NCBI GenBank assembly: GCA_036804025.1
Contig: DAIRTE010000004.1
Coordinates: 1 to 59,159, forward strand
Reading direction: 5' to 3'
Length of the DNA: 59,159 nt
Source of the DNA: Clostridia bacterium
GTDB taxonomy: Bacteria > Bacillota > Clostridia > Christensenellales > CAG-138
Made by a program: the position numbers and the translations under genes. Of this stretch, positions 11,910 through 48,859 are shown piece by piece. The notes beneath the pieces were generated by a model. It saw only the letters and a list, made by a program, of their open reading frames with translations, made no database searches and had not been told where the DNA came from. Numbering within the stretch: the stretch's first letter is position 1; the number at the start of each line of letters is the position of its first letter.

Positions 11910-11920
11910 CGAAGCACAAC

Positions 11921-34178: not shown

Positions 34179-34282
34179 GCTGGAGTGAATACTGAATCGA
34201 ATACGCTCAGGTCTGCTCGTTTTTGAAGATGTTGGAGTGAATGCTGAATCGAATGCGCTCAAGATTGCTCGTTTTTAAAGAT
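34179..34282. repeat. 52-bp tandem duplication spanning the 3' end of the ROK gene
   Basis: Copy 1 at 34179..34230 and copy 2 at 34231..34282 differ at 7 of 52 positions. Copy 2 holds the real C-terminus and stop (..IFKNEQS*). Copy 1 encodes a ghost ..IFKNEQT*. Confidence 0.9.
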
Positions 34283-35491
34283 TTCGTCCATGCTCATCAT
34301 GACGGCGGAACGGCGAAGCGTCTCAAAATCACCGGAGGACGCTTCAATTGCGACGTCCTGCGCATGGAGCAAGCGGAACTGACTGTGAATCGTCTTTCGC
34401 ACCATGTCGAGGAAGCCCTCGCCGAGCATGGTGATGGAGCCGCCAATGTGAATCACGTGGACGTCGTAGAGGTTGATCGCGCTGACCAGCCCGCAGCAGA
34501 GCGCGTAGACATAGTCGTTGAGCACCTCTAGAACCGCCGGTTCGCGCGCGAGGAAGCGCGTGGCAACTTCGCGCATGGCAACTTCGTTGATCTGCGCGGC
34601 AAAGCAGTCGTTGTAGGTCAGGTGAAGCCCGGCGCGCTCGTTCAGCGCGCGAAACAGCGCGGCGGTGGAGCAGATGCTCTCGAGGCAACCGCGGTTGGAG
34701 CAGCGGCACATCGGCCCGTTTCGGTCTACGATGATATGGCCGATCTCCAGCGAAAAGCACTGCGCGGGGTCCTTGTGCGCGTCGCCCAACACGACGCCGG
34801 CGCTGATGCCTTCGTCAATGTTGATGGCCAGCACGCGCTTTCCGGGGGAGTAGTCGTCCGAACTGTACTCCATAAACGCGAGCACGCTCGTGTTGTTGCT
34901 CATGAGCACGCGCGAATCGGGGAACTTCTCGCGCAGCTGCGCAACCAGATCCGCCTCGGTGAGCTCCTCGGCGGGAATGACGGCGGAAAACTGGATGCAG
35001 CCGGTTTCCGCGTCGAAGATGCCGGGAAAGATCACGTGAATCCCGATCAGCCGATACATGGGAATACGCTTTGCCTTGAGCAGTTTCTTGATCTCCGCGG
35101 AGATCTGCTCGCTCGTGTGCGTGGCGCCGTGAATGCGAACGCTGCCGAGCTTGCGGAAGCAAATGTCGTAAAGCGAACAGATGAAGCTGTGGCTGATGAT
35201 TTCTACCGTCGCAATGCAGCCGCCCGCCGCGTTGACCTCGAGCATAATCGGCTTTCGGCCGCGCATCGTGGACGCGCCTGCGCCCGTTTCGCGAATCCAT
35301 TTGTTCTGAATCAGCTCGTCCACGAGCATGGAGACGGTGGTTGGCGAAAGATTGGTTTGGGTTGCCAGCGTCGCGCGCGAAGTAGGCATGGTCTTACGAA
35401 TGATATTAAAGAGCAGCATGGTGTTGCTTGCTTTAATCTTTTGCTGCGAGAAGTTCGTCGGTGCTTTATCGGCGACGATTGGATGAATCAT
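34259..35491 (-). CDS. ROK-family transcriptional regulator
   Basis: N-terminal wHTH (TSRATLATQTNLSPTTVSMLVDEL). ROK Zn motif HIIVDRNGPMCRCSNRGCLE. RBS GAGGTG. Confidence 0.9.
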   Translation of the reverse strand: MIHPIVADKAPTNFSQQKIKASNTMLLFNIIRKTMPTSRATLATQTNLSPTTVSMLVDELIQNKWIRETGAGASTMRGRKPIMLEVNAAGGCIATVEIISHSFICSLYDICFRKLGSVRIHGATHTSEQISAEIKKLLKAKRIPMYRLIGIHVIFPGIFDAETGCIQFSAVIPAEELTEADLVAQLREKFPDSRVLMSNNTSVLAFMEYSSDDYSPGKRVLAINIDEGISAGVVLGDAHKDPAQCFSLEIGHIIVDRNGPMCRCSNRGCLESICSTAALFRALNERAGLHLTYNDCFAAQINEVAMREVATRFLAREPAVLEVLNDYVYALCCGLVSAINLYDVHVIHIGGSITMLGEGFLDMVRKTIHSQFRLLHAQDVAIEASSGDFETLRRSAVMMSMDEIFKNEQS

Positions 35492-35567
35492 AGGAACACC
35501 TCATTGTTTTTGCAGAATACAGATTTCTCCATCGCACGAAATAATAATTGTGACATATGTTGTTAGT

Positions 35568-35597
35568 ATTCTAGCATCAACAAAGGGCTTCTTGCAA
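35568..35597 (-). promoter_or_regulatory. Promoter of the second ROK regulator gene
   Basis: Minus strand: TTGCAA (35592..35597), 18 nt spacer ending in TGC, TAGAAT (35568..35573). Confidence 0.65.
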
Positions 35598-35751
35598 GCG
35601 GCGCGTAGAAAAGCTTTTGGCGTAAATCACGCAAATACGTCCTTTTCGCTGGCGGGCAAAACCGCCAATCGCGGGGAAGGACTGCACGAATCTCGCATCA
35701 AACCGCCGTTTCAGCCAAAAACGACTGAAAAACTGGCGTTTTCTGGTCGAA

Positions 35752-35766
35752 ATTTGAAATTCAAAT
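35752..35766. promoter_or_regulatory. AT-rich perfect palindrome, candidate operator
   Basis: ATTTGAA-A-TTCAAAT, lying between the divergent ROK and ABC promoters. Confidence 0.35.
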
Positions 35767-35813
35767 GGAAAAATTACAATAAAAATAATTCAGCGAAAAA
35801 AATAAAACAAGTT

Positions 35814-35827
35814 ATAATTCGAATTAT
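35814..35827. promoter_or_regulatory. AT-rich perfect palindrome, candidate operator
   Basis: ATAATTCGAATTAT, a 14-bp perfect palindrome. Confidence 0.35.
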
Positions 35828-35915
35828 GGCAATAAAAAGCCAGTAAAATAGCACATAATATTAGTCCAAGAAAAATAATATAAAATGTAAAAAGCAAGAA
35901 ATGCAAAATTTTATA

Positions 35916-35944
35916 TTGATTTTTGAATATTGGTATTGTATCAT
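35916..35944 (+). promoter_or_regulatory. Promoter of the CUT2 ABC importer operon, with a ~300-nt leader
   Basis: TTGATT (35916..35921), 17 nt spacer, TATCAT (35939..35944). Confidence 0.55.
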
Positions 35945-36251: not shown

Positions 36252-37256
36252 ATGAGTGACCCCTGCGTATCCAAAGTGAGCTATTCCAATTCCGATTTTG
36301 CGAAAAAGGTATCTAATTTTACAAAAGAGAATATGGCCATTGTGGCGATTGTTCTCATGAGCGTTGTGTTCTCTTTTACGTCGCCCTATTTCCTCTCCTG
36401 GGAAAACTGGAAGAACATTCTGCTTCAAACCTCTACGGTATCCATTGCGGCAATGGGACAGGCGATTGTTCTGCTCACCGGTAACTTCGACCTGTCGCTC
36501 GGACGCAACGTCGCATTCACCAGCTGCCTGGGCGCGGTTCTGATGAAGGGGATGACCGCCGACGCAGCGCAGATGAATCCCTGGCTTGCAATCATCATCA
36601 TGCTGCTGGCCGGAACGGCGATTGGCCTTGCCAACGGCGTGCTCACGGCGTATGCCGGTCTGCCGGCGTTCATCGCCACGCTGGGATTGCAGAACATCTG
36701 CTACGGCATGGCCAAGGTCATTACCAACGCCACGCCGATTGCAACCTTCTCCGATCAGATTGCGTTCTTCGGCCGCGGCTATCTCGGCCCGATTCCGTAC
36801 TGCGTCATCATCATGATTGCCCTGTATGTTGTAGCACAGTTCCTCTCGACGAAAACACGACTGGGCCGGAACATCTACGCGGTTGGCGGCAGCAAGGAAG
36901 CCGCGTTCTTCTCCGGCATCGACGTGAAAAAGTATACCTGCCTCGCGTTCGTCATCGCGGGATTGCTCGCGTCGTTCAGCGGCGTGGTACTGATGAGCCG
37001 GTTGAACTCCGTCGCCATTACGAACGGCCAGAACTACGAGTTTGACGCGGTCATCGGTTCCATCATCGGCGGCATCAGCCTCGCGGGTGGCAAGGGCAAG
37101 ATCATTGGCACCATGTTTGGTTCCATCTTCCTCATTACGCTGTTCAACGGCATGGCACAGCTGCACGTGGACCCATTCGTACAGGACGTTCTCAAGGGCG
37201 TTGTACTGCTCGCGGCCATCGGTCTGGACGTGCTGCGCAACCGGAAACGCGCTTAA
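36252..37256 (+). CDS. Monosaccharide (CUT2) ABC transporter permease, RbsC-like
   Basis: Start trimmed to MSDPCVSK (RBS AAAGGAG). Multi-TM. GGSKEAAFFSGIDV motif. Confidence 0.88.
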   Translation: MSDPCVSKVSYSNSDFAKKVSNFTKENMAIVAIVLMSVVFSFTSPYFLSWENWKNILLQTSTVSIAAMGQAIVLLTGNFDLSLGRNVAFTSCLGAVLMKGMTADAAQMNPWLAIIIMLLAGTAIGLANGVLTAYAGLPAFIATLGLQNICYGMAKVITNATPIATFSDQIAFFGRGYLGPIPYCVIIMIALYVVAQFLSTKTRLGRNIYAVGGSKEAAFFSGIDVKKYTCLAFVIAGLLASFSGVVLMSRLNSVAITNGQNYEFDAVIGSIIGGISLAGGKGKIIGTMFGSIFLITLFNGMAQLHVDPFVQDVLKGVVLLAAIGLDVLRNRKRA

Positions 37257-38779
37257 TGGCGACGTTTTCTGAAGATCAAGAAAGGGCTGACAGCACGATG
37301 GAGAAAGACTACATCCTGAAGATCGAGGGGATAAGCAAGAGCTTTCCGGGCGTGAAAGCGCTCGACTCGGTATCGTTTCAAATCGAACGCGGAACCATTC
37401 ATGCGCTGGTTGGCGAAAATGGAGCCGGAAAGAGCACGCTGATCAAGATTCTGGCGGGCATCTATCATGCGGAGGAGGGGAAAGTTCTCCTCAACGGAAA
37501 TTGCGTGGGGTTCCGCACGCCCCATGAATCCCGCATGGCCGGAATCGCGGTTGTCCATCAGGAAGTGAAGCTCGCCGAGCCGCTCTCCGTAACCGAGAAT
37601 CTGTTCGTCGGAAACCTGATTATGCGCGGGCACCTCGTGGACTGGAAGGAGATGCGCCGCCGCGCGGCGGAGACCATTCAGAACCTCGGCGTGGAGATCG
37701 ACGTAGACGCGCCGGTCGAGTCGCTGACCGTCGCCAAGAAGCAGATCGTTGAGATTTGCCGCGCGGTCAACATGAACTGCAAACTCCTGATCATGGACGA
37801 GCCCTCGGCAACGCTGACCGACCGCGAGCTGGACATTATGTTCGGAATCGTAAAGAAGCTCCGCTCGGAAGGAATTACGATCATCTATATTTCGCACCGG
37901 TTGGACGAGGTGTTCAATCTGGCGGACAACGTTACCGTTCTGCGGGACGGCAAGCATGTTGCGACGCAGCCGGTTGCGGACGTCTCGCGCGAAAAGCTGA
38001 TCTCGCTGATGGTTGGCCGCGAGCTCGGGCAGGAGTACCCAAAGATCGCCGCTTCACAGGGGGACGTGATCCTCGAGGTCAAGAACCTCTGCCGCAAGGG
38101 CGTGCTGCACGACATCAGCTTTTCGGTTCGAAAAGGCGAAGTGCTCGGCATCTCCGGCCTGGTCGGCGCGGGACGCACCGAACTTGCGCGCGCCATATTG
38201 GGCATTGACCGCATCGATGCCGGCGAAATCTTCGTCCGCGGAAAAAAGGTGCAATACCGGTCCTTCCGCGAGGCAATTCACGATGGACTGGGTCTGATTC
38301 CGGAGGATCGCAAGCTGCAGGGGTTGGTTCAGGTGTTCTCCGTCAAGTGCAACATCTGCATGGTGAGTCTCGACAAGATCATTCGCCACGGCATTGTGCG
38401 CGAGAAACTCGAGACCAAGTACGCGGAGGAATACTCTAAGAAACTGCGCGTTGCAACGCCGACGCTGGACACGCAGGTGCAGTACCTCTCCGGCGGAAAT
38501 CAGCAGAAGGTCGTCGTTGCAAAGTGGCTGCTCCAGAACAGCGACATTCTGTTTCTGGACGAGCCGACGCGCGGCATCGACGTCGGCGCGAAGGCAGAGA
38601 TCTACGGGCTTATCAACGTGCTCGTGGAACAGGGCAGAACCGTCATCATGATCTCGTCCGAGATGCCGGAGATTCTGGGCATGTGCGACCGCATCGTCGT
38701 GCTGCACGAAGGCAAGAAGATGGGCGAACTGCTGCGCGAAGAAGCGACGCAGGAAAAGATCATGGCGCTCTGCGTGTAA
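37256..38779 (+). CDS. Monosaccharide ABC transporter ATP-binding protein, duplicated cassette, RbsA-like
   Basis: TAATG overlap with the permease stop; alternative start at 37298 (MEKDY). Walker A GENGAGKST, LSGGNQQK, LFLDEPTRGID. Confidence 0.9.
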   Translation: MATFSEDQERADSTMEKDYILKIEGISKSFPGVKALDSVSFQIERGTIHALVGENGAGKSTLIKILAGIYHAEEGKVLLNGNCVGFRTPHESRMAGIAVVHQEVKLAEPLSVTENLFVGNLIMRGHLVDWKEMRRRAAETIQNLGVEIDVDAPVESLTVAKKQIVEICRAVNMNCKLLIMDEPSATLTDRELDIMFGIVKKLRSEGITIIYISHRLDEVFNLADNVTVLRDGKHVATQPVADVSREKLISLMVGRELGQEYPKIAASQGDVILEVKNLCRKGVLHDISFSVRKGEVLGISGLVGAGRTELARAILGIDRIDAGEIFVRGKKVQYRSFREAIHDGLGLIPEDRKLQGLVQVFSVKCNICMVSLDKIIRHGIVREKLETKYAEEYSKKLRVATPTLDTQVQYLSGGNQQKVVVAKWLLQNSDILFLDEPTRGIDVGAKAEIYGLINVLVEQGRTVIMISSEMPEILGMCDRIVVLHEGKKMGELLREEATQEKIMALCV

Positions 38780-38807
38780 ATACTAATAGAAGCTACAACA
38801 TAATCTA

Positions 38808-38857: not shown

Positions 38858-38893
38858 CTGTTAAAAATAAAACATCAAGGAGGAGTCTCAAAC

Positions 38894-39940
38894 ATGAAGA
38901 AGTTTCTGTCCATGCTGCTGGTAGCAATGCTTGCAATCTCCATTTTCGGTTGCGCGGCACCCGCCGCCGTGGCCCCCGCCGCGGAAGAACCCGCCGCCGC
39001 AACGGAAGCCCCCGCTGCCGAAGCAGCCGCCGAAGCCCCTGCCGCGGATGCGAGCAAACCGCTGGCCGGCCTCAAGATCGGCAATACCATCGTCTACAAG
39101 GGTGACGTATGGTGCGCTCTGCTGGCCGAGGAATTCGAAAAGCAGGCTACCGCGCTTGGCGCCGAAATCACCGTGGAAGACGGCGACCTGAACGCAGAGA
39201 CACAGTCCAAGCAGATCGAGAACATGATCGCACGCGACGTGGATGTTATCTTCGCCGATCCCGCGACATTTGACGGCTGCACCGCGGCCTTCGAAAAGGC
39301 AACGGCCGCCGGTATCCCGGTGTTCACCTACGACAGCGCGCCTTCCTACGAAGGCATTGTCACCCACACCGGTTGGGACAACGTGGAAACCGGCAAAATG
39401 GTTGGCGACTACGTGCTGGAATGGGTCAAGACCAACATGGCGGACAAACTCCCGGCGCGCATCATCCTGCTGGGCAACTATGCTTCCGAGCACTGCATCA
39501 CGCGTGAAGACGCCTTCATGGAAGTTGTCAACGCCAACCCGGATGCACTGACCGTCATCTCCCGCCAGGATTGCGAAGGCAACCGTGAAAAGGGCGCGAA
39601 TGCCGTTACCAACATCGTGGAACCGTTTGACATCGTCGTGAGCGTTGTGGACAACGGCGCGTGGGGCGCGGTCTCCGCAATCGAAGCGCGCGGCCTGACC
39701 GGCGTAAAAGTGTTCTGCATGGGCGCATATGGCGACGAACCGTTCCGCGCGCTGCGCGACGCACACCCGATCTACGAAGCCTGCCTGATTGTTGATCCGG
39801 CCGCGATTGCCCGAATCACGCTGGACAGCTACACGAAGTATGTGCAGGGTCAGACCGAGTTTGAGAAGGTCACCAACATCCCGCTCTACATCTGCAACAC
39901 CGAGAACATTGCGGACTTCTATTCGTTCCCGAACGGCTAA
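38894..39940 (+). CDS. CUT2 ABC transporter substrate-binding lipoprotein (RbsB/Peripla_BP_4-like)
   Basis: RBS AAGGAGGAG. Lipobox LAISIFGCAAP. Ala/Pro/Glu linker, then the periplasmic-binding-protein type I fold pattern. Confidence 0.88.
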   Translation: MKKFLSMLLVAMLAISIFGCAAPAAVAPAAEEPAAATEAPAAEAAAEAPAADASKPLAGLKIGNTIVYKGDVWCALLAEEFEKQATALGAEITVEDGDLNAETQSKQIENMIARDVDVIFADPATFDGCTAAFEKATAAGIPVFTYDSAPSYEGIVTHTGWDNVETGKMVGDYVLEWVKTNMADKLPARIILLGNYASEHCITREDAFMEVVNANPDALTVISRQDCEGNREKGANAVTNIVEPFDIVVSVVDNGAWGAVSAIEARGLTGVKVFCMGAYGDEPFRALRDAHPIYEACLIVDPAAIARITLDSYTKYVQGQTEFEKVTNIPLYICNTENIADFYSFPNG

Positions 39941-39966: not shown

Positions 39967-40094
39967 CCCGCGAAGGAACCGGTTTCGGTTCCTTCGCGGG
40001 AAACACGAGAGTTCAATCGCATACTATAGATCGCATCTGTTCCCGTGGAGCCGATTCCGGTTCCCTCACGAGAAACACAAGAACGCAATCACAT
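39967..40094 (+). repeat. Strong 15-bp-stem hairpin without U-tract, plus a degenerate second copy of its 3' half
   Basis: CCCGCGAAGGAACCG-GTTT-CGGTTCCTTCGCGGG at 39967..40000. CGGTTCCTTCGCGGGAAACACGAGAGTTCAATCGCA (39986..40021) recurs as CGGTTCCCTCACGAGAAACACAAGAACGCAATCACA (40058..40093). Confidence 0.8.
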
Positions 40095-40291: not shown

Positions 40292-40320
40292 TTGACAAAG
40301 GGTGGAAAGAATAGTATTAA
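40292..40320 (+). promoter_or_regulatory. Promoter of the aminotransferase/dehydrogenase operon
   Basis: TTGACA (40292..40297), 17 nt spacer, TATTAA (40315..40320). Confidence 0.65.
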
Positions 40321-40363
40321 TATATTAAGTCACTGGACTAATTAAATAACAGGGAGCGAAAAC

Positions 40364-41641
40364 ATGAAACAGCCGAACGAGCAATTGGTGATGAATGCTG
40401 CGGGCATCCTCGAGCTTGGATTCCCGATGTGGCCGCAGTTTGCGCCGGAAACGCCGCAGGACGTTGCGGATATTCTCAAGAGCGGACTGGTCAACTACTG
40501 GACCGGCAAGAAGGGCATGGAGTTTGAAGAACAGTTCCGCGCGTGGTCCGGAGCAAAGATGGCGATTTCCTGCACGAACGGAACGGCGGCGCTGCACATT
40601 GGTCTGGCGAGCCTTGGCATTGGACCCGGGGACGAGGTGCTGGTGCCTTCCTACTCGTTTATCGCTTCGTCCTTCTCCATCGTGCAAGCAGGGGCAATCC
40701 CCGTGTTCTGCGACGTGACGGAGGATCACACCGTGGATCCGGACGACATCGAGCGCAAGATTACGCCGCGCACGAAAGGCATCGTCTGCGTCCATCTCTA
40801 CGGCGTGGTGTGCGACATGGCGCGCATTCTGGACATTGCCAAGCGGCATCATCTGTATGTGATTGAAGACGCGGCGCAGTGCATTGGCGGCAAGTTCAAC
40901 GGCAAGATGGTTGGCACGATTGGCGACGTCGGCTGCTTCAGCTTCTGCCAGTCGAAACACTTCACGACGGGCGGCGAGGGCGGCATGGTGCTGACCAACG
41001 ACGAGAACATCGGCTGGGAAGCCCGCTCGTTCCGCGACCACGGCTACGACGTCAAGAAGCGCATGAACATGCTTGCGCTGGAGGAAAAGCTGCCGTACAT
41101 CCACACCCGCGTGGGCTTTAACTACCGCATGACGGAGATGCAGTCCATGATTGGCATCAACGAAATGAAGCGGTTCGACAGCTGGAACCTGCCGCGCAGA
41201 CTGCAATACGCAAAGATGTATGACGAAGCGTTTCAGGGGCTAAAGGGCATTGCGAAGCTGCCGGTCAACACGGCGGAACGACAGAATTCCTACTGGTGGT
41301 ATCCCATCACGCTCAATCTGGATGAGCTGACGACGGACGCGCAGGGCATTTTACACGCGCTGCATGAGGAGAAGATTCCGTGCTACGGAATCCAGTGGCC
41401 GGAGGCCTATGAGGAGCGCGCGTACAAGGAGCTGAACGGCTTTGGCACGGCGCAGTTCCCCTTCCACTCGAAGGAGTATACGGCGCAGGGGTTGAGCTAC
41501 GAACAGGTGCTCTGCCCGGTTGCAAAGTCGCTGCGCGCGAGAACGGTCAATCTCTTCCTGCATCCAACGTGGGACGAAGTACATATCCGCCGGGTGATTG
41601 AGGCGTTTACCGCGGTGCTTTCCGCGCATACAAAAGCGTAA
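40364..41641 (+). CDS. DegT/DnrJ/EryC1/StrS-family PLP-dependent sugar aminotransferase (copy 1)
   Basis: CTNGTAALHIGL, GDEVLVPSYSFIAS, VIEDAAQ, and the Schiff-base Lys in FSFCQSKHFTTGGEGGMV. Confidence 0.9.
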   Translation: MKQPNEQLVMNAAGILELGFPMWPQFAPETPQDVADILKSGLVNYWTGKKGMEFEEQFRAWSGAKMAISCTNGTAALHIGLASLGIGPGDEVLVPSYSFIASSFSIVQAGAIPVFCDVTEDHTVDPDDIERKITPRTKGIVCVHLYGVVCDMARILDIAKRHHLYVIEDAAQCIGGKFNGKMVGTIGDVGCFSFCQSKHFTTGGEGGMVLTNDENIGWEARSFRDHGYDVKKRMNMLALEEKLPYIHTRVGFNYRMTEMQSMIGINEMKRFDSWNLPRRLQYAKMYDEAFQGLKGIAKLPVNTAERQNSYWWYPITLNLDELTTDAQGILHALHEEKIPCYGIQWPEAYEERAYKELNGFGTAQFPFHSKEYTAQGLSYEQVLCPVAKSLRARTVNLFLHPTWDEVHIRRVIEAFTAVLSAHTKA

Positions 41642-41717: not shown

Positions 41718-42770
41718 ATGGCAGAACAGAAAAAAGTACGTTGGGGCGTCATCGGCGCCGGCGGCATTGCAGATCGAAGGACGATTCCCGGCATGATGCT
41801 GGCGAACAATGCCGAGCTCATCGCGGTGATGGAGATTGACCTGCAGCAGGCAAACCGGCTGAAGGAAAAGTACGGCGCAAAGCGCGCCTACGACTCGGAA
41901 GCGGAACTGCTCGCGGATTCCGAGGTGGACGCGGTCTACATTGCGTCTCCGGTGGTATTGCACGCCAAGCAGGCGAAGATGGCCGCGGACGCTGGCAAGC
42001 ATATTTTAATCGAGAAACCGCTCGCCATGACCAGCGCGGAAGGACAGGAAGTGCTGGACTACTGCAACGCGCGCGGCATTTTGATTGCGGCGGGGCTGAT
42101 GATGCGCTTCGGCGCAAACGTGATGGCGATGCGCGAGGCCGTTCAGGCGGGTCAAATTGGCGCGGTCGTTTCCGGCTTTGCGCAGTTCACCTGCTGGTAC
42201 CCGGATATCCCCGGCAACTGGCGCCAGCAAAAGAGCACCGCGGGCGGCGGGGCGCTGATGGACATGGGCGTGCATTGCATCGACTTGGTTCAGTACGTCA
42301 CCGGCAGCAAGGTCAAACAGGTCGCGGGATTTCACGATACGCTGACTTTTGGCTACGAGGTGGAGGATTCCTCCAGCGTGCTGCTGCGACTGGAGAACGG
42401 CGCAATGTGCACCGTACAGTCGAATTTCAACATTCCGGACGAAGCGGCCAAGTGGCGGCTGGAGTTCTTTGGAACGCGCGGACGGTTGCTGGGCGATTCG
42501 GTCATCGGTCAGGTGGACGGCGGCAGCGTGGACGCCATGTTCCTTGCGGACGTCGGCGGTTACGACGCGGCGCAGGACGGCAAGGAAGCGCAAAAGACGA
42601 CGCTCAACGTTGCGCTCGGCAACATGTATACGCGCGAGATTGAGAGCTTTGGCGAGTCGCTGCTCAACAAAACGCCGCTTACGACTCCGGCTTCGGAGGC
42701 GGTGCAGGTGCAGCGCGTGATTGAGGCGGCGTATCGCTCCTGCGAGGAGAAGCGGATCATCGATCTGTAA
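41718..42770 (+). CDS. Gfo/Idh/MocA-family NAD(P)-dependent sugar/cyclitol oxidoreductase (copy 1)
   Basis: Rossmann VRWGVIGAGGIA; EKPLA motif (ILIEKPLAMT). 350 aa. Confidence 0.9.
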   Translation: MAEQKKVRWGVIGAGGIADRRTIPGMMLANNAELIAVMEIDLQQANRLKEKYGAKRAYDSEAELLADSEVDAVYIASPVVLHAKQAKMAADAGKHILIEKPLAMTSAEGQEVLDYCNARGILIAAGLMMRFGANVMAMREAVQAGQIGAVVSGFAQFTCWYPDIPGNWRQQKSTAGGGALMDMGVHCIDLVQYVTGSKVKQVAGFHDTLTFGYEVEDSSSVLLRLENGAMCTVQSNFNIPDEAAKWRLEFFGTRGRLLGDSVIGQVDGGSVDAMFLADVGGYDAAQDGKEAQKTTLNVALGNMYTREIESFGESLLNKTPLTTPASEAVQVQRVIEAAYRSCEEKRIIDL

Positions 42771-42793: not shown

Positions 42794-43636
42794 ATGAAGA
42801 AGAGCATCAATTTCTGGTCGTTTGCCGCGGGTACAACGGTTGCGGAAGGAATCCGGCTCGCGAAGGACGCCGGTTTTGCGGGAATTGAACTTTCCATGGG
42901 CGAAGTGGGGTTGATGGGGTTGCCAACCGCGGACGCGGCCAAGACGGCGCGGAGCATTGCCGAGAGCGAAGGCATTGCGCTGCCCAGCCTTGCCTGCGGA
43001 CTGTGCTGGGACGCGCTGTTGACCAGCGCGATTGCAAAGAAGCGCAATGAGGCGAAGGACATGATCCGCCGTCAGGTGGACATGGCGGCCGAGCTCGGCG
43101 CGGACAGCATTCTCGTGATTCCCGGTGCGGTCGGTGTGGATTTTTTAAACGGAAACGAGAACCTGCTGCCGTATGACGAAGCATACGACGCCGCGCTGGA
43201 AGGCATTCTGGAGCTCGCGCCCCATGCGGAGCAGGCGCGCGTGAATCTGGCGCTGGAGAACGTTTGGAACAAGTTTTTGCTCTCGCCGCTCGAGCTAAGG
43301 GACTTTATCGACAAGATCGGCTCCGACTATGTCGGCAGTTACTTTGATGTTGGCAACGTGGTGCTGACGGGATATCCGGAGCAATGGGTGCGAATCTTGG
43401 GCAAACGGATCAAGAAGGTGCACTTCAAGGACTACCGGCGCGACCCCGGCGGGTTCAACTGCTTCTGCGATCTGCTGTCGGGCGACGTGGACTATCCCGC
43501 CGTCGTCGAGGCGCTTGAGGCGGTTGGTTACGACGATTATTGCGCGGCGGAGATGATTCCGAACTATCGGCACTACACCAGCCAAACGATCTACAACGCG
43601 TCCAAATCGATGGACCGGATTATAGGCAAAGCGTAG
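42794..43636 (+). CDS. Xylose-isomerase-like TIM-barrel sugar(-phosphate) isomerase/epimerase/dehydratase
   Basis: 280 aa with the AP_endonuc_2-type pattern (GFAGIEL ... LALENV ... YFDVGN ... HFKD). Confidence 0.85.
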   Translation: MKKSINFWSFAAGTTVAEGIRLAKDAGFAGIELSMGEVGLMGLPTADAAKTARSIAESEGIALPSLACGLCWDALLTSAIAKKRNEAKDMIRRQVDMAAELGADSILVIPGAVGVDFLNGNENLLPYDEAYDAALEGILELAPHAEQARVNLALENVWNKFLLSPLELRDFIDKIGSDYVGSYFDVGNVVLTGYPEQWVRILGKRIKKVHFKDYRRDPGGFNCFCDLLSGDVDYPAVVEALEAVGYDDYCAAEMIPNYRHYTSQTIYNASKSMDRIIGKA

Positions 43637-43714: not shown

Positions 43715-44722
43715 ATGGCACGCATTGGCATCATTGGCGCGGGATTTATGGGCACCGCGCACTCGGCGGCGATTCTGAAGTCAACGAAGCATCCCCTCGT
43801 CGGCATTGCGGACATCGACCGCAAAAAGGGCGAAGCGCTCGCGAACGAACGCGGCTGCAAGTATTTTTCGACGGCGGAGGAGCTGCTCGCGCAGCCGGAC
43901 GTCGACATCGTCCACATCTGCCTGCCGACCAACCTGCACTGCGCCTATATTCAGAAGGCGGCGGCGGCCGGGAAACACGTGCTCTGCGAAAAGCCGTTTT
44001 CGCTGCACGACAGCGAGATTGCCGCGGCAATCGACGCGGCCAAGGCAAACCACGTGAAGCTCATGATCGCGCAGGTGGTGCGCTTCTGGCCGGAAAACGT
44101 CGTCATCAAGCAATACAAGGAAAGCGGCGTGTTGGGCGAAATCAAGATGTGCAGCGCGCATCGGCTGGGACAGATTCCCGCCTGGGCGGACTGGTATCGC
44201 AATCCGGAAATCAGCGGCGGCGGGCTGTTTGACCTGCATACGCACGACATCGACAACATGATCGACCTGTTTGGCGCCTGCACGGAGGTATACTCGATTG
44301 GAGCCAAGCGCGACGGCTGCTGGAACTATATGTCGACCTCGCTGACGTTTGCCAGCGGCAAGAAGAGCATTGTGGAATCCAGCCTGAACATGCCGGGCGA
44401 TTATCCGTTTTCCACGTCGTTCCGCCTGCTGGGCGAGCGCGCCTGCATTGAGCAGACCATGCGCGCCGGCGCGAATCTGGACGATATGTCCAACAGCGTT
44501 CGAACGCTCAAGCTCTACGAAGACGGGAAGCCCTGCGTCAATGTGCCGTATGAGGCATACGACGCGTACTGGTGCGAAATTGAGCACTTTGCGGACTGCG
44601 TGGATCAAGGCATTGCCCCGCGCATTTCGCCGGAGGAGTCGCGAAACGTCATGCGCGTGATCCGCGCAATTGAAGCCTCGCTTTCAAGCGGCGAGGTCGT
44701 GCCGACCGGCTGGGTCGGCTGA
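43715..44722 (+). CDS. Gfo/Idh/MocA-family oxidoreductase (copy 2)
   Basis: ARIGIIGAGFMG Rossmann; VLCEKPFS motif. 335 aa. Confidence 0.9.
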   Translation: MARIGIIGAGFMGTAHSAAILKSTKHPLVGIADIDRKKGEALANERGCKYFSTAEELLAQPDVDIVHICLPTNLHCAYIQKAAAAGKHVLCEKPFSLHDSEIAAAIDAAKANHVKLMIAQVVRFWPENVVIKQYKESGVLGEIKMCSAHRLGQIPAWADWYRNPEISGGGLFDLHTHDIDNMIDLFGACTEVYSIGAKRDGCWNYMSTSLTFASGKKSIVESSLNMPGDYPFSTSFRLLGERACIEQTMRAGANLDDMSNSVRTLKLYEDGKPCVNVPYEAYDAYWCEIEHFADCVDQGIAPRISPEESRNVMRVIRAIEASLSSGEVVPTGWVG

Positions 44723-44726
44723 GCGA

Positions 44727-45329
44727 ATGCAGCGCAGTTACGCGGTTTCCAGCTGCGAAGGCGCGCCGGACTGGGAAACGATTCCCGCGGCGCAGATCGA
44801 CGAGGCGCAATGGCTGCCCAACCCCGGCGTTGCGGCCTGGGCGCAGGTCTGCGCTGCGCCAGATGCGCTTTTCGTTCGCCTGTTTGCGCGCGAGGCGGAA
44901 CCGTTGGCCCGGTTTACCGGCGAAACGGACATGATTTGCCTCGACAGCTGTCTGGAGTTCTTCTTTTGCCCGTTGCCGGGCGATACGCGGTATTTCAATT
45001 TTGAGTTCAATCCAAACGGCGCGCTCTATCTTGGCTTTGGACACGACCGCTACGACAGCGTTCGCCAGCTCGTGCCGCGCGCGGGTTCGTTTTTTTGCGT
45101 CGAACAGCTCAAGCAGGGCGACGTTTGGGAAATCGGCTTTCGCATTCCGTTTTCGTTTATCCGGCTCTATGCGCCCGAATTCACGCTGCGCCCCGGCCTG
45201 CGGCTGCGCGGAAATTTTTATCACTGTGGTGAGGAAACGTGCGCTCCGCGCTATCTTTCCTGGAACCGCATTCATTGTGAGACACCGGAGTTTCACCAGC
45301 CCTCGGACTTTGGTTGGCTGGTTTTTTAG
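44727..45329 (+). CDS. Carbohydrate-binding family 9-like (DOMON-like) protein, no signal peptide
   Basis: Start trimmed to MQRSYAVSS. ~200 aa with a beta-rich pattern (DSCLEFFFCP ... YFNFEFNPNGALYLGFG ... GNFYHCGE), typical of CBM9-like proteins. Confidence 0.65.
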   Translation: MQRSYAVSSCEGAPDWETIPAAQIDEAQWLPNPGVAAWAQVCAAPDALFVRLFAREAEPLARFTGETDMICLDSCLEFFFCPLPGDTRYFNFEFNPNGALYLGFGHDRYDSVRQLVPRAGSFFCVEQLKQGDVWEIGFRIPFSFIRLYAPEFTLRPGLRLRGNFYHCGEETCAPRYLSWNRIHCETPEFHQPSDFGWLVF

Positions 45330-45342
45330 GAGGATTTGACTT

Positions 45343-46512
45343 GTGAGGACGACCCTGTACAACGGACAGGTGATTACCCCGCTCGTGGTGCGCCGCGGCG
45401 GAGTGGTGGTGGAAGATGGCAGAATTCTGCGCGTTTTTGAAGACGATGACTTTGAACGAACCGGAGAGTTGATCGACTGCCGCGAACAGTTCATTTCACC
45501 GGGCTTTGTCGACATCCACACGCACGGCATTTTCAACGGCGACACGATGGACGCAACGCCGGAGGCGCTGCATCGCATTACGCGCCTGCATGCCCAGCAT
45601 GGCACGACCAGCCTGCTGCCGACGACGCTTTCGCGCGGGCACGACGAAGTGTTGCGCGCGCTCAACAACATCTGCGTCTGCCGCGAACTGCCGCCGGATG
45701 GCGCGCGGATTCTCGGCGCGCATCTGGAGGGAAACTATTTTTCGCCAAAGATGGCGGGCGCGCAGAACCCCGCCTATCTGTATCCGCCGGACGAACAGGA
45801 CTACATGGAGTACGTAAAAACCGGGTGCGTCGTGCGCGTTGCGGCGGCGCCGGAGCTGCCCGGGGCGCTGAAGATGGCGGAGCAGCTGGTGCCGCTCGGC
45901 ATTCAGCTCTCCATTGGGCATTCAAACGGCACGCCGGAGGATGTTCGAAACGCGATTGCCGTCGGCTATTCCTCGCTGACGCATATCTTTAACGCGCAGT
46001 CCGCGCTCAACAGCGTGTTTGTCTACCCCGAGGCGGGCGTTTGCGAGTCCGCACTCTTGCACGATGAGCTGCGCGTGGAGTGCATTTGCGACGGAAACCA
46101 TCTCTCGCCAACGCTGTTGAAGCTGATCTACAAGATTAAGGGCGCGGACGGCATGATTGGCATTACGGACGCCGTCTATGCCGGCGCGGCGGATGGCGAC
46201 TACGTCATGGGCGGCCTCGACGTCGAGGTAAAGAACAACATCTGCATTCTCAAGAACCAGAGCGCATTTGCGGGCAGCATTGCGACCATGGATCTGTGTG
46301 TGCGGACGCTGCACCTCAAAGCGGGCATTCCGATTCAGGATGCGGTGTATATCTGTTCCTACACCCCGGCAAAGGTCATTGGCCGGCAGAACAGCATTGG
46401 CATGCTGCAACCGGGATTTGATGCGGATATCAACGTGTTCGATTCTGAGATTAACATTCTCTACACAATGGTTCAGGGTAAGACGTTCCAAAACAAGCTG
46501 GCGAATGCTTGA
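45343..46512 (+). CDS. nagA: N-acetylglucosamine-6-phosphate deacetylase family amidohydrolase
   Basis: GTG start with RBS TAGGAGGA. PGFVDIHTHG, HLEGNYFS, SIGHSN, THIFNA. Confidence 0.88.
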   Translation: MRTTLYNGQVITPLVVRRGGVVVEDGRILRVFEDDDFERTGELIDCREQFISPGFVDIHTHGIFNGDTMDATPEALHRITRLHAQHGTTSLLPTTLSRGHDEVLRALNNICVCRELPPDGARILGAHLEGNYFSPKMAGAQNPAYLYPPDEQDYMEYVKTGCVVRVAAAPELPGALKMAEQLVPLGIQLSIGHSNGTPEDVRNAIAVGYSSLTHIFNAQSALNSVFVYPEAGVCESALLHDELRVECICDGNHLSPTLLKLIYKIKGADGMIGITDAVYAGAADGDYVMGGLDVEVKNNICILKNQSAFAGSIATMDLCVRTLHLKAGIPIQDAVYICSYTPAKVIGRQNSIGMLQPGFDADINVFDSEINILYTMVQGKTFQNKLANA

Positions 46513-46558
46513 TCCGTTGAGTCGAAAGAATACATTCGAGTGAGAGAAGGCAGGGCGC

Positions 46559-47875
46559 ATGAAAAAGAAGAATGATTCGGATTTTCGCTACAACACCGGC
46601 GAAACACGCGTTCCTTGGGCGGCAGTCGGCGAAAACTACAACGCGTTGGATACCTTGGAGGTCATCCGGTTTCTGATGCAGGGGGAAGGCGAGGATTACG
46701 AAGCGGCGTTCCAATCGGTCAAAGAAACCATTCACCGTCTGGATGCCGTGTCCAGCCCGCCGGGCAAACTCTCGCTGGACGCGCAGGTGGCGCGCGCGGA
46801 GGCGCTGTGCGACGCGTATCTGCAAACCAGCGGGTGCCTGTTTTTGACCAACGCGACGGCAGGCTTCGAAATTGCCTACAAATACGCGAACATCAGCCCC
46901 GGAGACGAGGTGATTGTTCCGGCGATCACGTTTATTGCAACCATGGCATATCCGCTCTCGGTCGGCGCAAAGCTGGTGTTTGCGGACGTTGACCCCGTTA
47001 CGCTGAACATGGACCCTGCGGATGTGGCAAAAAAGATCACCCCGCGCACGAAGATGATTGTTCCGGTGCACATTGGCGGCTATCCGGTGGACATGGACCC
47101 GATCATGGAACTGGCGCGCGAGCACGATCTCGTCGTGCTGGAGGACGCGGCGCACGCGTTTGGCGCGGAGTATAAAGGGCGCAAAGTTGGAACAATCGGC
47201 CATTTCGGCGCGTTCAGCTTCCACGAGGTAAAGAACATCACCTCGTTCGGCGAGGGCGGTATTCTGACGACCAGCATCGAGAGCTTTCGGCCGGAGATGC
47301 GGCGCGCGCGGTTTCTGGGGCTGGACTTCTCGAAGCAGATTAAGGACTGGCTCTACGATGTTTCCCCGATTGCCGGAAAATACGGCCCATTCGTGGCAGG
47401 CAACCACTCCACAACCGAGATTCAGGCGCTCGGGCTTGCGCGGCAGGTGGGGCGCGTGGACGAGATCATCTCCGCGCGGCGCGCGGCTTCCGCGTATCTG
47501 ACGGAGCGTCTTTCGGCCGACCCCGCGATCATTCCGCAGGATCTGGGCAGCGCGGCGATCAAACCGACGTTTCACCTCTATCGCATGCTGATCGATCCTT
47601 CACAGGCAGGCGCAGACGTGCAGGTGCTCAAGCGCAAACTCGCAGAGAAGGGCGTCACGACGATTCCGCACTTTGGCCCGCTCTACCGTTTTCAGGTGGC
47701 GGCGACCTTCGGGTACAACGGGGACGAAATTGCGAAAACCTGCCCCGTTTGCGAAGAGGTGTTTCATCATCGCTTCACGCATTTTCCGGTCTATGGGCTC
47801 TCGCAGGATCAGCTGACATTTATGGCGGACGCGATTCTGGAGTCGCTTGGCGAGATGCGGCGCGAGGCAAAGTAA
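46559..47875 (+). CDS. DegT/DnrJ/EryC1/StrS-family PLP-dependent aminotransferase (copy 2)
   Basis: TNATAGFEIAY, GDEVIVPAITFIAT, VLEDAAHA, and Lys in FSFHEVKNITSFGEGGIL. Confidence 0.9.
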   Translation: MKKKNDSDFRYNTGETRVPWAAVGENYNALDTLEVIRFLMQGEGEDYEAAFQSVKETIHRLDAVSSPPGKLSLDAQVARAEALCDAYLQTSGCLFLTNATAGFEIAYKYANISPGDEVIVPAITFIATMAYPLSVGAKLVFADVDPVTLNMDPADVAKKITPRTKMIVPVHIGGYPVDMDPIMELAREHDLVVLEDAAHAFGAEYKGRKVGTIGHFGAFSFHEVKNITSFGEGGILTTSIESFRPEMRRARFLGLDFSKQIKDWLYDVSPIAGKYGPFVAGNHSTTEIQALGLARQVGRVDEIISARRAASAYLTERLSADPAIIPQDLGSAAIKPTFHLYRMLIDPSQAGADVQVLKRKLAEKGVTTIPHFGPLYRFQVAATFGYNGDEIAKTCPVCEEVFHHRFTHFPVYGLSQDQLTFMADAILESLGEMRREAK

Positions 47876-47915
47876 CGCGCAGAGTGCGCGCACAGGAGAG
47901 AAGAATTGAAACAGC

Positions 47916-47950
47916 GAGCGCATCGGAAAGATGCGCTCCTTTCCTCTTAT
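47916..47950 (+). terminator. Candidate terminator or attenuator before the RmlD-like gene
   Basis: GAGCGCATC-GGAAA-GATGCGCTC followed by CTTTCCTCTT. Confidence 0.5.
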
Positions 47951-47974
47951 CGAGAAAAAGGATAAAATGCTTCT

Positions 47975-48859
47975 ATGGATTCGATTTTAATCATAGGCGG
48001 AAATGGCTTTCTGGGTTCGCACCTCGCAGCGCGCGCAGGGGCGCTTGGCATGCGCGTCAGCGTGGTTGGAACGGCACAGCGCCCCACGGTACCGAACGCG
48101 GCATACCATCACGCGGACATCGGCGATCTTCGCGCGATGCAGGCCGTGTTTCAAGTGGTGTCGCCGCGCTTTGTCGTGAATTCGGCGGCGATTGCGGACA
48201 TTGACTATGCCGAACAACACCCGGAGGAAGCCCTGCGCGTGAACGCACTCGGCGCGGAGGTCTGCGCAAAACTGGCGGCTGAGCACCATGCGCGGCACCT
48301 GTTCTTCTCGTCGGACGCGGTGTTTGACGGTACAAAAGCGGCCTACTCGGAGGACGACGCGACGAACCCTTGCAACTATTACGGAAGAACCAAGGAGCTT
48401 GCGGAGCAGAAAGTCGCGTTGGCTCATCCGGACGCGGTGATTGCGCGGGTGTCGTTGCTGCTTGGACGAAGCAGCGGAAACTCCGGCGTGGTCGATCCGC
48501 TGATGCGCAGGCTGGAGGCGGGGGATGAGGCGTTTAGCAACAGCGACCAGATTCGCACGCCGATCGACATCTATACGCTGGCGGACGCCGTGTTTGAATT
48601 GCTGGCACGGCAAGAGTGCTCCGGCCTCGTTCATCTGGCGTGTACCGAGGCGGCAAGCAAGCTGGAGATTTGCCGGGGTATCGCAAGAGGACTTGGATAC
48701 GATCCGGAACGCGTGCAGCATTACCCCGCGGGAAGCGCGCGGGGAGCCAAGCGCCATTTAAACGGCGTGCTAAGCGTGGAGAAGGCGGCGCGAGGATTGA
48801 AACAGACGCACCTGCCAACGCTGGAGGAGACCATTGCGCGCGCGATGCTGGGCAGATAA
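47975..48859 (+). CDS. RmlD-like NAD(P)H-dependent (keto)sugar reductase / SDR epimerase-family protein
   Basis: ILIIGGNGFLGSHL Rossmann. SSDAVFDG, YxxxK in NYYGRTK. 294 aa. Confidence 0.85.
   Translation: MDSILIIGGNGFLGSHLAARAGALGMRVSVVGTAQRPTVPNAAYHHADIGDLRAMQAVFQVVSPRFVVNSAAIADIDYAEQHPEEALRVNALGAEVCAKLAAEHHARHLFFSSDAVFDGTKAAYSEDDATNPCNYYGRTKELAEQKVALAHPDAVIARVSLLLGRSSGNSGVVDPLMRRLEAGDEAFSNSDQIRTPIDIYTLADAVFELLARQECSGLVHLACTEAASKLEICRGIARGLGYDPERVQHYPAGSARGAKRHLNGVLSVEKAARGLKQTHLPTLEETIARAMLGR

Follow-up and report, generated by a model that had tools for sequence, protein, structure and literature searches.

What does a bacterium do with two DegT-family aminotransferases and two Gfo/Idh/MocA oxidoreductases that are encoded beside a ROK-type repressor gene and a sugar importer? 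We addressed this question for a cluster in contig DAIRTE010000004.1 of a Clostridia bacterium, the whole 59,159-nt stretch of DNA that was analyzed being termed the window. The reading we favor, at a probability of roughly 0.55, is that the cluster forms a catabolic regulon under ROK repression, devoted to an N-acylated amino monosaccharide that is imported and is most likely of the hexosamine type, stemming from host or microbial glycans; the reaction direction, the substrate class, and the order of steps are what we infer. If this reading is true, the gene set would serve the removal of amino groups from the imported amino sugar. The first-pass annotation knew of no characterized pathway with this gene set; our literature searches likewise found no published description of one, and NCBIfam has no equivalog.

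Gene Content and Extent of the Locus

The 12 genes of the first-pass annotation were all recovered at their positions and with their Pfam families (ORF listing and Pfam scans), and profile-HMM searches (Pfam, NCBIfam) upheld every domain assignment. The regulator gene (34259–35491, minus strand) encodes an N-terminal wHTH and a ROK domain (Pfam ROK, 3e-31), with the CxCxxxxC zinc motif present and the DxGxT kinase motif absent; its best NCBIfam matches are NagC and Mlc, both under cutoff, and it is 53–64% identical to the ROK genes of L003 and L009, two loci of other genomes. The importer, on the plus strand and assigned by Pfam, consists of a CUT2 ABC permease (BPD_transp_2, 36141/36252–37256, with an AAGGAG ribosome-binding site before the ATG at 36252), a fused double ABC_tran ATPase (37256–38779), and a lipoprotein substrate-binding protein (Peripla_BP_4, 38894–39940, lipobox IFGC) that only distantly resembles ribose-binding proteins (best PDB match 2fn8, E 2.5e-23). 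Then follow, on the same strand and again with Pfam support, the genes for the PLP aminotransferase DegT1 (DegT_DnrJ_EryC1, E 7e-97; 40364–41641), the oxidoreductase Gfo1 (GFO_IDH_MocA, EKP motif; 41718–42770), a xylose-isomerase-like TIM barrel of the isomerase/epimerase/dehydratase class (AP_endonuc_2; 42794–43636), the second GFO_IDH_MocA oxidoreductase, Gfo2 (EKP motif; 43715–44722), a stand-alone cytoplasmic CBM9-fold protein (CBM9_2; 44727–45329), a NagA-like amidohydrolase (Amidohydro_1; 45343–46512), the second DegT_DnrJ_EryC1 aminotransferase, DegT2 (E 1e-74; 46559–47875), and an RmlD-like extended SDR reductase (RmlD_sub_bind, GxxGxxG and YxxxK motifs; 47975–48859). Both DegT proteins retain the Schiff-base lysine (Lys198 in DegT1, Lys225 in DegT2). 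For the CBM9-like protein no signal peptide was found, and its AF2 model (pLDDT 96.6) gave 4jpq, 7nwo, and 1i82 as best Foldseek matches. The RmlD-like protein stays under the RmlD equivalog cutoff (170.6 vs 224.05 bits). The proposal of two paired dehydrogenase/aminotransferase modules holds only in part: in the window DegT2 adjoins the RmlD-like reductase gene and has no Gfo gene beside it.

While the genes assigned to the locus stand, its supposed start at 34259 does not, as the system reaches upstream to two further, divergent genes, which have an operator-like motif in common with the DegT1 promoter. One (32761–34116, plus strand) encodes a cytoplasmic neutral-ceramidase-like Zn amidohydrolase of ~451 aa with an HTHSGP motif and a weak PF04734 match (E 4.7e-7, under cutoff); a signal peptide was not seen in its sequence, and the gene is found together with ROK, ABC, and DegT1 genes in L009, L087, and L088. 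The other (31535–32485, minus strand) encodes a NagB-like protein of 316 aa (GlcN-6-P deaminase/isomerase superfamily), which has no Pfam match and scores far below the nagB cutoff (TIGR00502, 44.5 bits, cutoff 236.9); its family profile matches GlcN-6-P deaminases at 1e-9, it is 62% identical to a Wansuia protein (L003:19557–20507), and the family recurs adjoining DegT loci (neighbor cluster 8). The cluster contains no kinase gene, and, as had been claimed, Pfam scans of the submitted window ORFs, several of which are without any Pfam match, revealed no glycosyltransferase, nucleotidyltransferase, flippase, or polymerase domain.

Promoters and an Operator-Like Motif

The TTGACA-17-TATTAA promoter postulated in front of DegT1 is present on the plus strand (sequence scan; TTGACA at 40292–40297, 17-nt spacer, TATTAA at 40315–40320). 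Behind it lies an operator-like motif, GTCACTGGACTAATTAA (40329–40345), which reappears as GTCACTGGAGGAATTAA (32580–32596) directly downstream of the -10 element of a TTGACA-17-CATAAT promoter facing the NagB-like gene and as a half-site, TGGACTAATAT (35858–35868, minus strand), in the divergent ROK/ABC region, making it common to three promoter regions of the window. The consensus, TCAnTGGAC[AT]AATTA, is positioned just 3' of the -10 elements at the DegT1 and NagB-like promoters and is likewise kept in front of DegT1 in L003, L008, and L089; in L087, sites of this type precede the ceramidase-like gene and the permease gene. Four of the six exact matches in 1.3 Mb of loci fall at such promoter sites, the motif having been derived from these same sequences. 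We infer from the sequence that it is a candidate operator of the ROK protein. A perfect 15-bp hairpin (39967–40000) separates the binding-protein gene from the DegT1 promoter, and a bidirectional terminator hairpin (48909–48932) 3' of the RmlD-like gene closes the operon.

Conservation and Neighborhoods in Other Genomes

The full cluster is syntenic, with differing flanking genes, in L006, L007, L008, L087, and L090 (related Christensenellaceae-like genomes); because gene order is conserved in these independent assemblies, the genes have not come together by accident. The core is kept in permuted order in L010, L015, L085, L089, and Wansuia (L003), and other gut Clostridia, numbering hundreds of species, carry a shuffled core of DegT1, DegT2, Gfo1, TIM barrel, Gfo2, CBM9-like protein, CUT2 importer, ROK or AraC regulator, and deacetylase. 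DegT1 has more than 120 homologues of 71–82% identity. The deacylase position is taken by different families across genomes (NagA-like, PIG-L, creatininase-like), and L090 keeps the RmlD-like gene inside the cluster; both this gene and the NagA-like gene are accessories confined to particular lineages.

These arrangements bear on the notion that no single pathway is encoded and that a ribose-like importer, inositol-like dehydrogenases, a nag gene, and a stray rml gene are merely together in a carbohydrate-utilization island. Sugar loci unconnected with the cluster do crowd the window (a second CUT2 system along with a ROK gene of its own, UxaC/UxaE, GH5, GH2, GH30 operon), and DegT1-Gfo1, TIM-Gfo2-CBM9, and DegT2 are found apart as separate modules in other genomes. 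Such a mosaic nonetheless appears highly improbable in view of the tight packing of eight genes, DegT1 through DegT2, on one strand behind a single promoter, of the operator-like motif tying three promoter regions together, and of the recurrence of the set with different flanks (L008, L087, L090) or in permuted order (L010, L015, L085, L089).

The gene-neighborhood test proposed in the first-pass annotation covered ~85 genomes/contigs with orthologous DegT1/DegT2 loci, none of which is a glycan-biosynthesis locus, and the objection that such clusters are always embedded in biosynthesis loci thereby fails. Their neighbors are regulators, transporters, further Gfo/TIM enzymes, deacetylases, GH20, PfkB, and NagB-like genes, with nucleotidyl- and glycosyltransferases not among them. 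The 136 immediate neighbors of DegT2 orthologues recurrently include Gfo, AP_endonuc_2, transporters, AraC, PfkB, and GH20, and the 25 commonest families listed include no glycosyltransferase or NTP-transferase family; N-acetyltransferases are not among the frequent neighbor families either. GH20 hexosaminidases adjoin DegT2 in L013 and L035, and DegT1-Gfo1 in L088. Where DegT2 orthologues have full flanks, roughly one in two is without an adjacent Gfo gene, regulator, or amidohydrolase, and some have hprK and a gene resembling glucokinase next to them (L046, L071, L074), a context that could reflect a housekeeping role.

Reaction Direction and Substrate

In the route envisaged here, the unphosphorylated sugar would enter by way of the CUT2 transporter with its lipoprotein binding protein, whereupon the cytoplasmic NagA-like enzyme and the ceramidase-like amidase would take off its N-acyl group(s). 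DegT1 and DegT2 would then act as deaminating enzymes, with a 2-oxo acid as acceptor of the amino group and a keto-sugar as the remaining product, which NAD(P)H-dependent Gfo1, Gfo2, and the RmlD-like protein together with the TIM-barrel isomerase/epimerase would convert to an ordinary sugar; a leftover C2 amine would be handled by the NagB-like enzyme. Among solved structures, 1,5-anhydro-D-fructose reductase, which reduces a keto-sugar, is nearest to Gfo1. The NagA-like enzyme clears the NagA cutoff (TIGR00221, NCBIfam; 245 vs 225.65 bits), and its orthologues carry VF(V/M)YPEAG in place of the H(H/R)RE(P/I)G loop and miss the phosphate-binding Arg, which is consistent with a predicted unphosphorylated, ABC-imported substrate. 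With the nag pathway (NagC/Mlc-NagA-NagB) the cluster shares a NagC/Mlc-type ROK protein, a NagA-family deacetylase, a NagB-superfamily protein, and an apparently common operator. It differs in scores that are far below or only just at the nag equivalog cutoffs, in the lost Arg, in an ABC importer instead of a PTS, in the lack of a kinase, and in DegT, Gfo, TIM, and RmlD-like enzymes that have no nag-pathway counterpart.

Transaminase reactions are reversible, and all Gfo plus DegT pairs characterized to our knowledge aminate (NtdC/NtdA, WbpB/WbpE, GnnA/GnnB). An imported neutral sugar or cyclitol might accordingly be oxidized by Gfo and aminated by DegT, in an anabolic or salvage direction, to yield an amino compound destined for export or the cell envelope, with NtdC/NtdA and IdhA/MosB as models. 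In L003 and L005, CN_hydrolase genes lie near or beside DegT1; they might encode omega-amidases, which would suit and pull glutamine-dependent amination. ThrE-type exporters and housekeeping contexts accompany some DegT2 genes. We nevertheless hold this direction to be quite improbable, as the neighborhoods, judged by the Pfam-scanned window ORFs and the frequent neighbor families listed, are devoid of N-acetyltransferase, nucleotidyltransferase, glycosyltransferase, and phosphatase genes. What recurs in them is an importer, regulators of the substrate-responsive type (ROK, AraC, PocR), deacylases, GH20, and the NagB-like deaminase. The catabolic direction suggested in the first-pass annotation is supported by deacylases of unlike families in one position and by the operator-like motif in common with the NagB-like gene. 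The kanosamine systems NtdABC/KabABC of Bacillus do resemble the cluster in having Gfo/Idh/MocA dehydrogenase and DegT aminotransferase genes side by side for a sugar that is not nucleotide-activated. They are, however, biosynthetic (glucose-6-P to kanosamine) and require the HAD phosphatase NtdB, whereas in the cluster a phosphatase is missing and deacylases accompany an importer and a NagB-like protein; nor is NtdA the nearest solved relative (E 1e-37 vs 1.7e-74 for the best match). WbpB/WbpE, GnnA/GnnB, and the rml pathway share the Gfo, DegT, and RmlD-like SDR families, but the cluster has no nucleotidyltransferase, 4,6-dehydratase, acetyltransferase, or glycosyltransferase, and its orthologues lie in regulator/transporter contexts.

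As to the substrate, an aminocyclitol (scyllo-inosamine or another inosamine) might be imported, converted from inosamine to inosose by DegT, and passed on by Gfo/TIM to an inositol route of the iol or the Thermotoga type, a scenario that we regard as unlikely. IolG is the best-scoring profile for both Gfo proteins, the TIM barrel (no PDB sequence match at 1e-8) weakly matches IolO and IolE, and a creatininase-like neighbor weakly matches IolN. The nearest PDB relatives of DegT1 and DegT2 are nucleotide-sugar or cyclitol aminotransferases, Gln:scyllo-inosose and 2-deoxy-scyllo-inosose aminotransferases among them. A CUT2 binding-protein importer, a Gfo dehydrogenase, and a xylose-isomerase-like TIM barrel also make up the core of the rhizopine mos/moc and iol systems, whose DegT-type MosB interconverts inosose and inosamine, and the Gfo, TIM, and creatininase-like/IolN-like partners would suit cyclitol chemistry equally well. 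Scyllo-inosamine is a known product of IdhA plus MosB (PMC6668481). UxaC and UxaE, encoded 20 kb upstream of the cluster, would also fit. Yet every iol match, including those to IolE and IolO, is far under its equivalog cutoff (e.g., IolG 150 vs 355 bits), and MocDEF, IolC, IolD, and IolJ are absent. The cluster has deacetylases, superfluous for free cyclitols, and a NagB-like gene, and hexosamine markers abound in its context (NagA-like, PIG-L/BshB-like, NagB-like, GH20, PfkB). Moreover, we know of no abundant gut aminocyclitol. Genomic context favors a hexosamine derivative over a diaminocyclitol.

Catabolic loci for 3-keto-glycosides (ThuAB, LgdA/LgdB, DgpA/B/C, BT2156-2160) likewise combine Gfo/Idh/MocA proteins and xylose-isomerase-like TIM barrels with small beta-sandwich proteins, but lack the aminotransferase and deacylase, and the cluster reaches only 42–45 bits against the BT_2158/BT_2159 families (cutoffs 650–750). 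A pair of RmlD-like and DegT genes also occurs in another catabolic-looking locus, which further encodes GalK, an ABC importer, and a fragment of a mutarotase (weak Aldose_epim match).

Gene layout and upstream extension

Every gene named in the first-pass annotation was recovered at its proposed position by ORF listing and Pfam/NCBIfam scans. A ROK-family regulator gene on the minus strand (34259-35491) is divergent from an ABC importer on the plus strand, whose BPD_transp_2 permease (36252-37256), fused double ATPase (37256-38779) and Peripla_BP_4 binding protein, a lipoprotein with a lipobox (38894-39940), together identify it as CUT2, i.e. of the monosaccharide type. The genes that follow, likewise on the plus strand, encode the DegT-family aminotransferase DegT1 (40364-41641), the Gfo/Idh/MocA oxidoreductase Gfo1 (41718-42770), an AP_endonuc_2 TIM barrel (42794-43636), a second oxidoreductase, Gfo2 (43715-44722), a CBM9_2 protein (44727-45329), a NagA-family amidohydrolase (45343-46512), a second aminotransferase, DegT2 (46559-47875), and an RmlD-like SDR (47975-48859). 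The claimed promoter, TTGACA-17-TATTAA, was found at 40292-40320 ahead of DegT1, and a bidirectional terminator (48909-48932) marks the operon end. Directly 3' of the binding-protein gene and before this promoter lies a perfect 15-bp, GC-rich hairpin without a T-run (39967-40000); a partial resemblance to it occurs about 50 nt further downstream (40040-40075). The locus had also been said to lack glycosyltransferase, nucleotidyltransferase, flippase and polymerase genes, and no such domain was present in the window ORFs put through Pfam, several of which gave no match at all. An Rfam scan of 31-49.5 kb, including the long leaders, returned no known RNA element.

The system extends past the interval originally delimited (34259-48859), with NagB-like and ceramidase-like genes upstream. 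The NagB-like protein (316 aa; 31535-32485, minus strand) has no Pfam match, is 62% identical to the protein after PIG-L in the Wansuia locus, and belongs to a family whose profile matches GlcN-6-P deaminases at 1e-9; as it scores under the NCBIfam nagB equivalog (44.5 versus 236.9 bits), its membership is at superfamily level only. The product of the gene beside it (32761-34116) is a cytoplasmic, neutral-ceramidase-like Zn amidase with a weak PF04734 match and an HTHSGP motif. Its arrangement with ROK and ABC genes is repeated in two related loci from other genomes (L009, L087), and a third (L088) has the order DegT1-Gfo1-GH20-ceramidase-like.

These units also share a cis element. An operator-like motif, GTCACTGGACTAATTAA, lies at 40329-40345, 9 nt downstream of the DegT1 -10 element, and another, GTCACTGGAGGAATTAA, at 32580-32596, just 3' of the -10 element of a TTGACA-17-CATAAT promoter facing the NagB-like gene; a half-site, TGGACTAATAT, is located in the ROK/ABC intergenic region. 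The core TCA(A/G)TGGAC(A/T)AATTA also precedes DegT1 in L003 (the Wansuia locus), L008 and L089 and, in L087, the ceramidase-like and permease genes. The pattern TGGAC[AT]AAT[AT]A has six exact matches across 1.3 Mb of loci, four of them at such positions; the count is only indicative, since the sequences searched are also those from which the motif was drawn. We infer that the motif is the ROK operator, and predict that the units form one regulon.

Enzyme families and relation to known systems

Both aminotransferases score above the PF01041 gathering cutoff of 19.8 bits (DegT1, 325; DegT2, 252) and keep the Schiff-base lysine (SFCQSK198HF in DegT1, SFHEVK225NI in DegT2). A reading as PMP-dependent dehydratases was discarded because the catalytic residue is Lys, not His, and the two are therefore regarded as aminotransferases. 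All DegT equivalog scores fell under their cutoffs, the best being that for PseC (231 versus 423.5 bits). Most characterised DegT/DnrJ/EryC1/StrS members act on nucleotide-sugar substrates; no enzymes making NDP-sugars were found in the DegT genomic context. Gfo1 and Gfo2 each have an N-terminal Rossmann and a C-terminal domain (Pfam) and an EKP motif (IEKPLA and CEKPFS, respectively), and among solved structures Gfo1 is nearest to a keto-sugar reductase, 1,5-anhydro-D-fructose reductase. The RmlD-like SDR carries GxxGxxG and YxxxK, and a PDB sequence search with the TIM barrel gave nothing at 1e-8. The ROK protein combines a wHTH, a ROK domain and the zinc motif CxCxxxxC with the lack of a DxGxT kinase motif, which fits a regulator; it scores 122.5 versus 650 bits against the NagC and 109.5 versus 530 bits against the Mlc equivalog.

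For the CBM9-like protein, an AF2 model (pLDDT 96.6) gave Foldseek matches to 7nwo and 1i82 at probability 1.0, placing it in the CBM9 fold; the model also resembles 4jpq, an uncharacterised Bacteroides protein, while the true CBM9 matches bind glucose or cellobiose. Unlike classical CBM9 modules, the protein stands alone without fusion to a glycoside hydrolase and is cytoplasmic, with no signal peptide. Public annotations of the partner proteins offer generic names only, and NCBIfam (June 2026) holds no specific model for these proteins.

The NagA-like protein passes TIGR00221 (245.3 versus 225.65 bits) and fails the stricter NF008371 (168.8 versus 483 bits). The Arg of the H(H/R)RE(P/I)G loop, a residue that binds the 6-phosphate in the enzyme structures from E. 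coli, B. subtilis and M. smegmatis, is missing, and the protein and its orthologues in L008, L087 and L090 have VF(V/M)YPEAG instead. Loss of this residue would suit an unphosphorylated substrate brought in by the ABC importer.

The locus works like a hybrid of the Nag regulon, the NtdC/NtdA or IdhA/MosB pairs and Gfo-plus-TIM catabolism of the iol/moc type, and is a member of none. Its likeness to the Nag regulon lies in a ROK protein, a NagA-family enzyme and a member of the NagB superfamily; scores against the NagC and NagB equivalogs fall under cutoff, and the phosphate-binding Arg of NagA is missing. With NtdC/NtdA or IdhA/MosB it has the oxidise-and-transaminate pair in common and, with kanosamine NtdABC, the adjacency of Gfo dehydrogenase and DegT aminotransferase, but no HAD domain, as in the phosphatase NtdB, occurs in 31-49 kb. 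The iol equivalogs are not reached (IolG, 149.7 and 140 versus 355 bits; IolE, 29 versus 290; IolO, 46 versus 300), nor is that of RmlD, and NDP-sugar biosynthesis loci of the rml/wbp/pgl type differ in having the nucleotidyltransferase and glycosyltransferase genes that are absent from the ORFs scanned here. It is because of these missing components, together with the unmatched NagC, NagB, IolG, IolE, RmlD and PseC equivalogs, that we place the locus outside these systems. An aminocyclitol as substrate is possible in view of IolG-, IolO- and IolN-like similarities, although all of these lie far under cutoff. Full-text literature searches on DegT/Gfo catabolism, sugar aminotransferase catabolic clusters, PDB codes 8GYH/7B0D/7B0M and inosamine catabolism turned up no account of a pathway with this gene set, and the first-pass annotation likewise knew of none. 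For glucosamine, the GapMind paper gives the NagX route only.

Conservation in gut Clostridia

The window itself matches MAGs of Christensenella sp. (L006, L007). For DegT1, homologues at 71-82% identity fall into more than 120 clusters, mostly from Clostridia where a source is named, and DegT2 has 562 confirmed relatives in a collection of species-representative genomes, the 80 loci kept being nearly all from Clostridia MAGs, most of animal or human gut origin, at about 70% identity. Across Christensenellaceae, Oscillospiraceae and Lachnospiraceae each of the two is conserved at roughly 70-80% identity, and the genomes come for the most part from the guts of humans, ruminants and poultry. When all window proteins were compared with the kept loci by tblastn, complemented by contig look-ups, the complete cluster proved syntenic in L008, L087 and L090 with differing flanking genes; L008 has a Zn-ADH in place of the RmlD-like gene, and on the L087 contig DegT2 lies upstream with its own ROK gene. 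A permuted core, composed of CBM9-like, AraC, TIM, Gfo2, PIG-L, (ROK), CUT2 ABC, Gfo1, and DegT2 and/or DegT1, is found in L010, L015, L085 and L089. The cultured Wansuia hejianensis, at about 1.257-1.278 Mb of CP060635, has a minimal unit, ROK-DegT1-Gfo1-ROK, adjoining an AraC/TIM/Gfo/Gfo/PIG-L/NagB-like/aldolase operon. DegT1 lies next to Gfo1 in the window, L003, L087, L088 and L089. A second, very common minimal unit has the order [AraC-PocR or ROK][209-aa protein]-DegT2-[creatininase-like]-Gfo paralogue. In many Clostridia, at L013:4528-5154 and in 18 further loci, the gene directly preceding DegT2 encodes this conserved 209-aa protein. Trp, Gly and Asp residues are invariant at many of its positions, and it has no Pfam, NCBIfam or PDB match; its interpretation as a diverged CBM9-like protein was discarded at an hhalign probability of 0.2%.

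The first-pass proposal would have been undermined if such clusters always sat inside glycan or antibiotic biosynthesis loci, and this was not seen around DegT2. Pfam assignment of 136 otherwise unclassified ORFs within 1.7 kb of DegT2 orthologues returned, as recurrent families, further Gfo/Idh/MocA proteins, AP_endonuc_2 barrels, transporters, AraC, PfkB and GH20; the listing of the 25 most frequent families included no glycosyltransferase or nucleotidyltransferase. Biosynthetic loci of this kind are therefore not the setting of the clusters. The association of DegT2 with its partners is not universal. Where both flanks span 5 kb or more (37 loci), a Gfo gene lies within 5 kb in 19, an AraC/ROK regulator in 18 and an amidohydrolase in 12, and in several Oscillospiraceae (L046, L071, L074) DegT2 is followed by the HPr kinase gene (hprK) and a ROK glucokinase-like gene, with no Gfo or deacylase there, a possible sign that the enzyme serves a broader or housekeeping function in some lineages.

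A DegT1 homologue of 71% identity was also encountered on an 838-kb contig (L005:8898-14860), in the order AraC-DegT-small ORF-TIM-Gfo-CN_hydrolase. Neighbours on this contig (ThuA, many Gfo, FGE-sulfatase, TPR) may point to a non-Clostridial origin, and the high identity may reflect transfer over a large phylogenetic distance. Plasmid-borne homologues of DegT1 (tblastn) were all below 47% identity; the context of the best, from Eleftheria terrae, was uninformative, and Ralstonia matches were set aside as EPS-biosynthesis aminotransferases. In L091 (6363-11539), an RmlD-like reductase of 40% identity adjoins a different DegT aminotransferase, together with two Amidohydro_2 and two URO-D-like genes, GalK, a mutarotase fragment (weak Aldose_epim match), GH172 and a CUT1 ABC importer; this looks like a second, different catabolic setting of a DegT and reductase pair.

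Direction, substrate and surroundings

Of the first-pass interpretation, a utilisation system for (di)amino sugars or aminocyclitols, the general part stands as likely, namely that this is a catabolic amino-carbohydrate system, and the substrate class is probably N-acylated amino sugars; two successive deaminations, also envisaged there, are a possibility. Catabolism of such a sugar is favoured by the filling of one slot with unrelated amide-hydrolase families in different genomes (NagA-like, PIG-L/BshB-like, creatininase-like), acetyltransferases not being recurrent. It is also favoured by GH20 hexosaminidase, NagB-like, PfkB and aldolase genes as neighbours, by inducible-type regulators and importers, and by the lost Arg of the NagA-like orthologues. 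The anabolic direction is possible: every characterised Gfo/DegT pair we know of aminates, and the CN_hydrolase genes nearby in L003 and L005 may encode omega-amidases. In the catabolic direction, the substrate would be imported and deacylated, the DegT enzymes would hand its amino group to a 2-oxo acid, Gfo1, Gfo2, the RmlD-like enzyme and the TIM barrel would reduce or isomerise the resulting keto-sugar, and the NagB-like enzyme would handle a C2 amine.

A bolder reading, to which we would give perhaps one chance in five, is that gut Clostridia widely feed on unusual amino sugars from the envelopes of other microbes or from host glycans by an unrecognised route under ROK/AraC control, in which 'biosynthetic' DegT enzymes run backwards on free, unactivated sugars together with Gfo/RmlD-like keto-sugar reductases and promiscuous amidases, the cytoplasmic ceramidase-like enzyme included. 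Candidate substrates would be 4-amino, 3-amino and di-N-acyl-diamino sugars (e.g., bacillosamine), FucNAc/QuiNAc-type sugars and N-acyl-glucosamines. If true, this would constitute a new class of catabolic pathway. All DegT-family sugar aminotransferases characterised to our knowledge make amino sugars or aminocyclitols destined for glycans and antibiotics; a dedicated catabolic role of DegT enzymes on imported non-nucleotide sugars would in itself be a new route in amino-sugar metabolism. Given the conservation of the core genes and the gut hosts, the substrate may be a relevant, overlooked gut nutrient or cross-feeding currency. The system is widespread in gut Clostridia and experimentally tractable, part of it being carried by cultured W. 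hejianensis, and the locus provides testable handles on unannotated families (the cytoplasmic CBM9-like protein, the ceramidase-like amidase, the divergent NagB-like protein and the 209-aa protein).

The whole window is a carbohydrate-utilisation island. On the minus strand at 48972-55952 lies a separate operon with a LacI regulator, an SBP_bac_1 binding protein, two CUT1 permeases and two GH30 enzymes, the latter best matched in NCBIfam, under cutoff, by BT3312-type endo-beta-1,6-glucanase. We discarded the GH30 and CUT1 genes as members of the system since they adjoin it only in the closest Christensenella genomes; L008, L087 and L090 have other genes there. Pfam gave no match for several long ORFs at 2680-8277. 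Another CUT2 ABC system, again made up of binding protein, ATPase and permease, lies at 7183-13323 along with an esterase gene and a further ROK-family regulator; a PFK-family kinase (13516-14802) comes next. The interval 14915-24784 encodes two glycoside hydrolases (GH5 and GH2), the glucuronate isomerase UxaC, the tagaturonate epimerase UxaE, an MFS_2 transporter and a prenyltransferase/SCP2-like protein. The window also contains genes for a Ser/Thr protein kinase with leucine-rich repeats (67-2148) and a tocopherol-cyclase-like protein (27599-28618).
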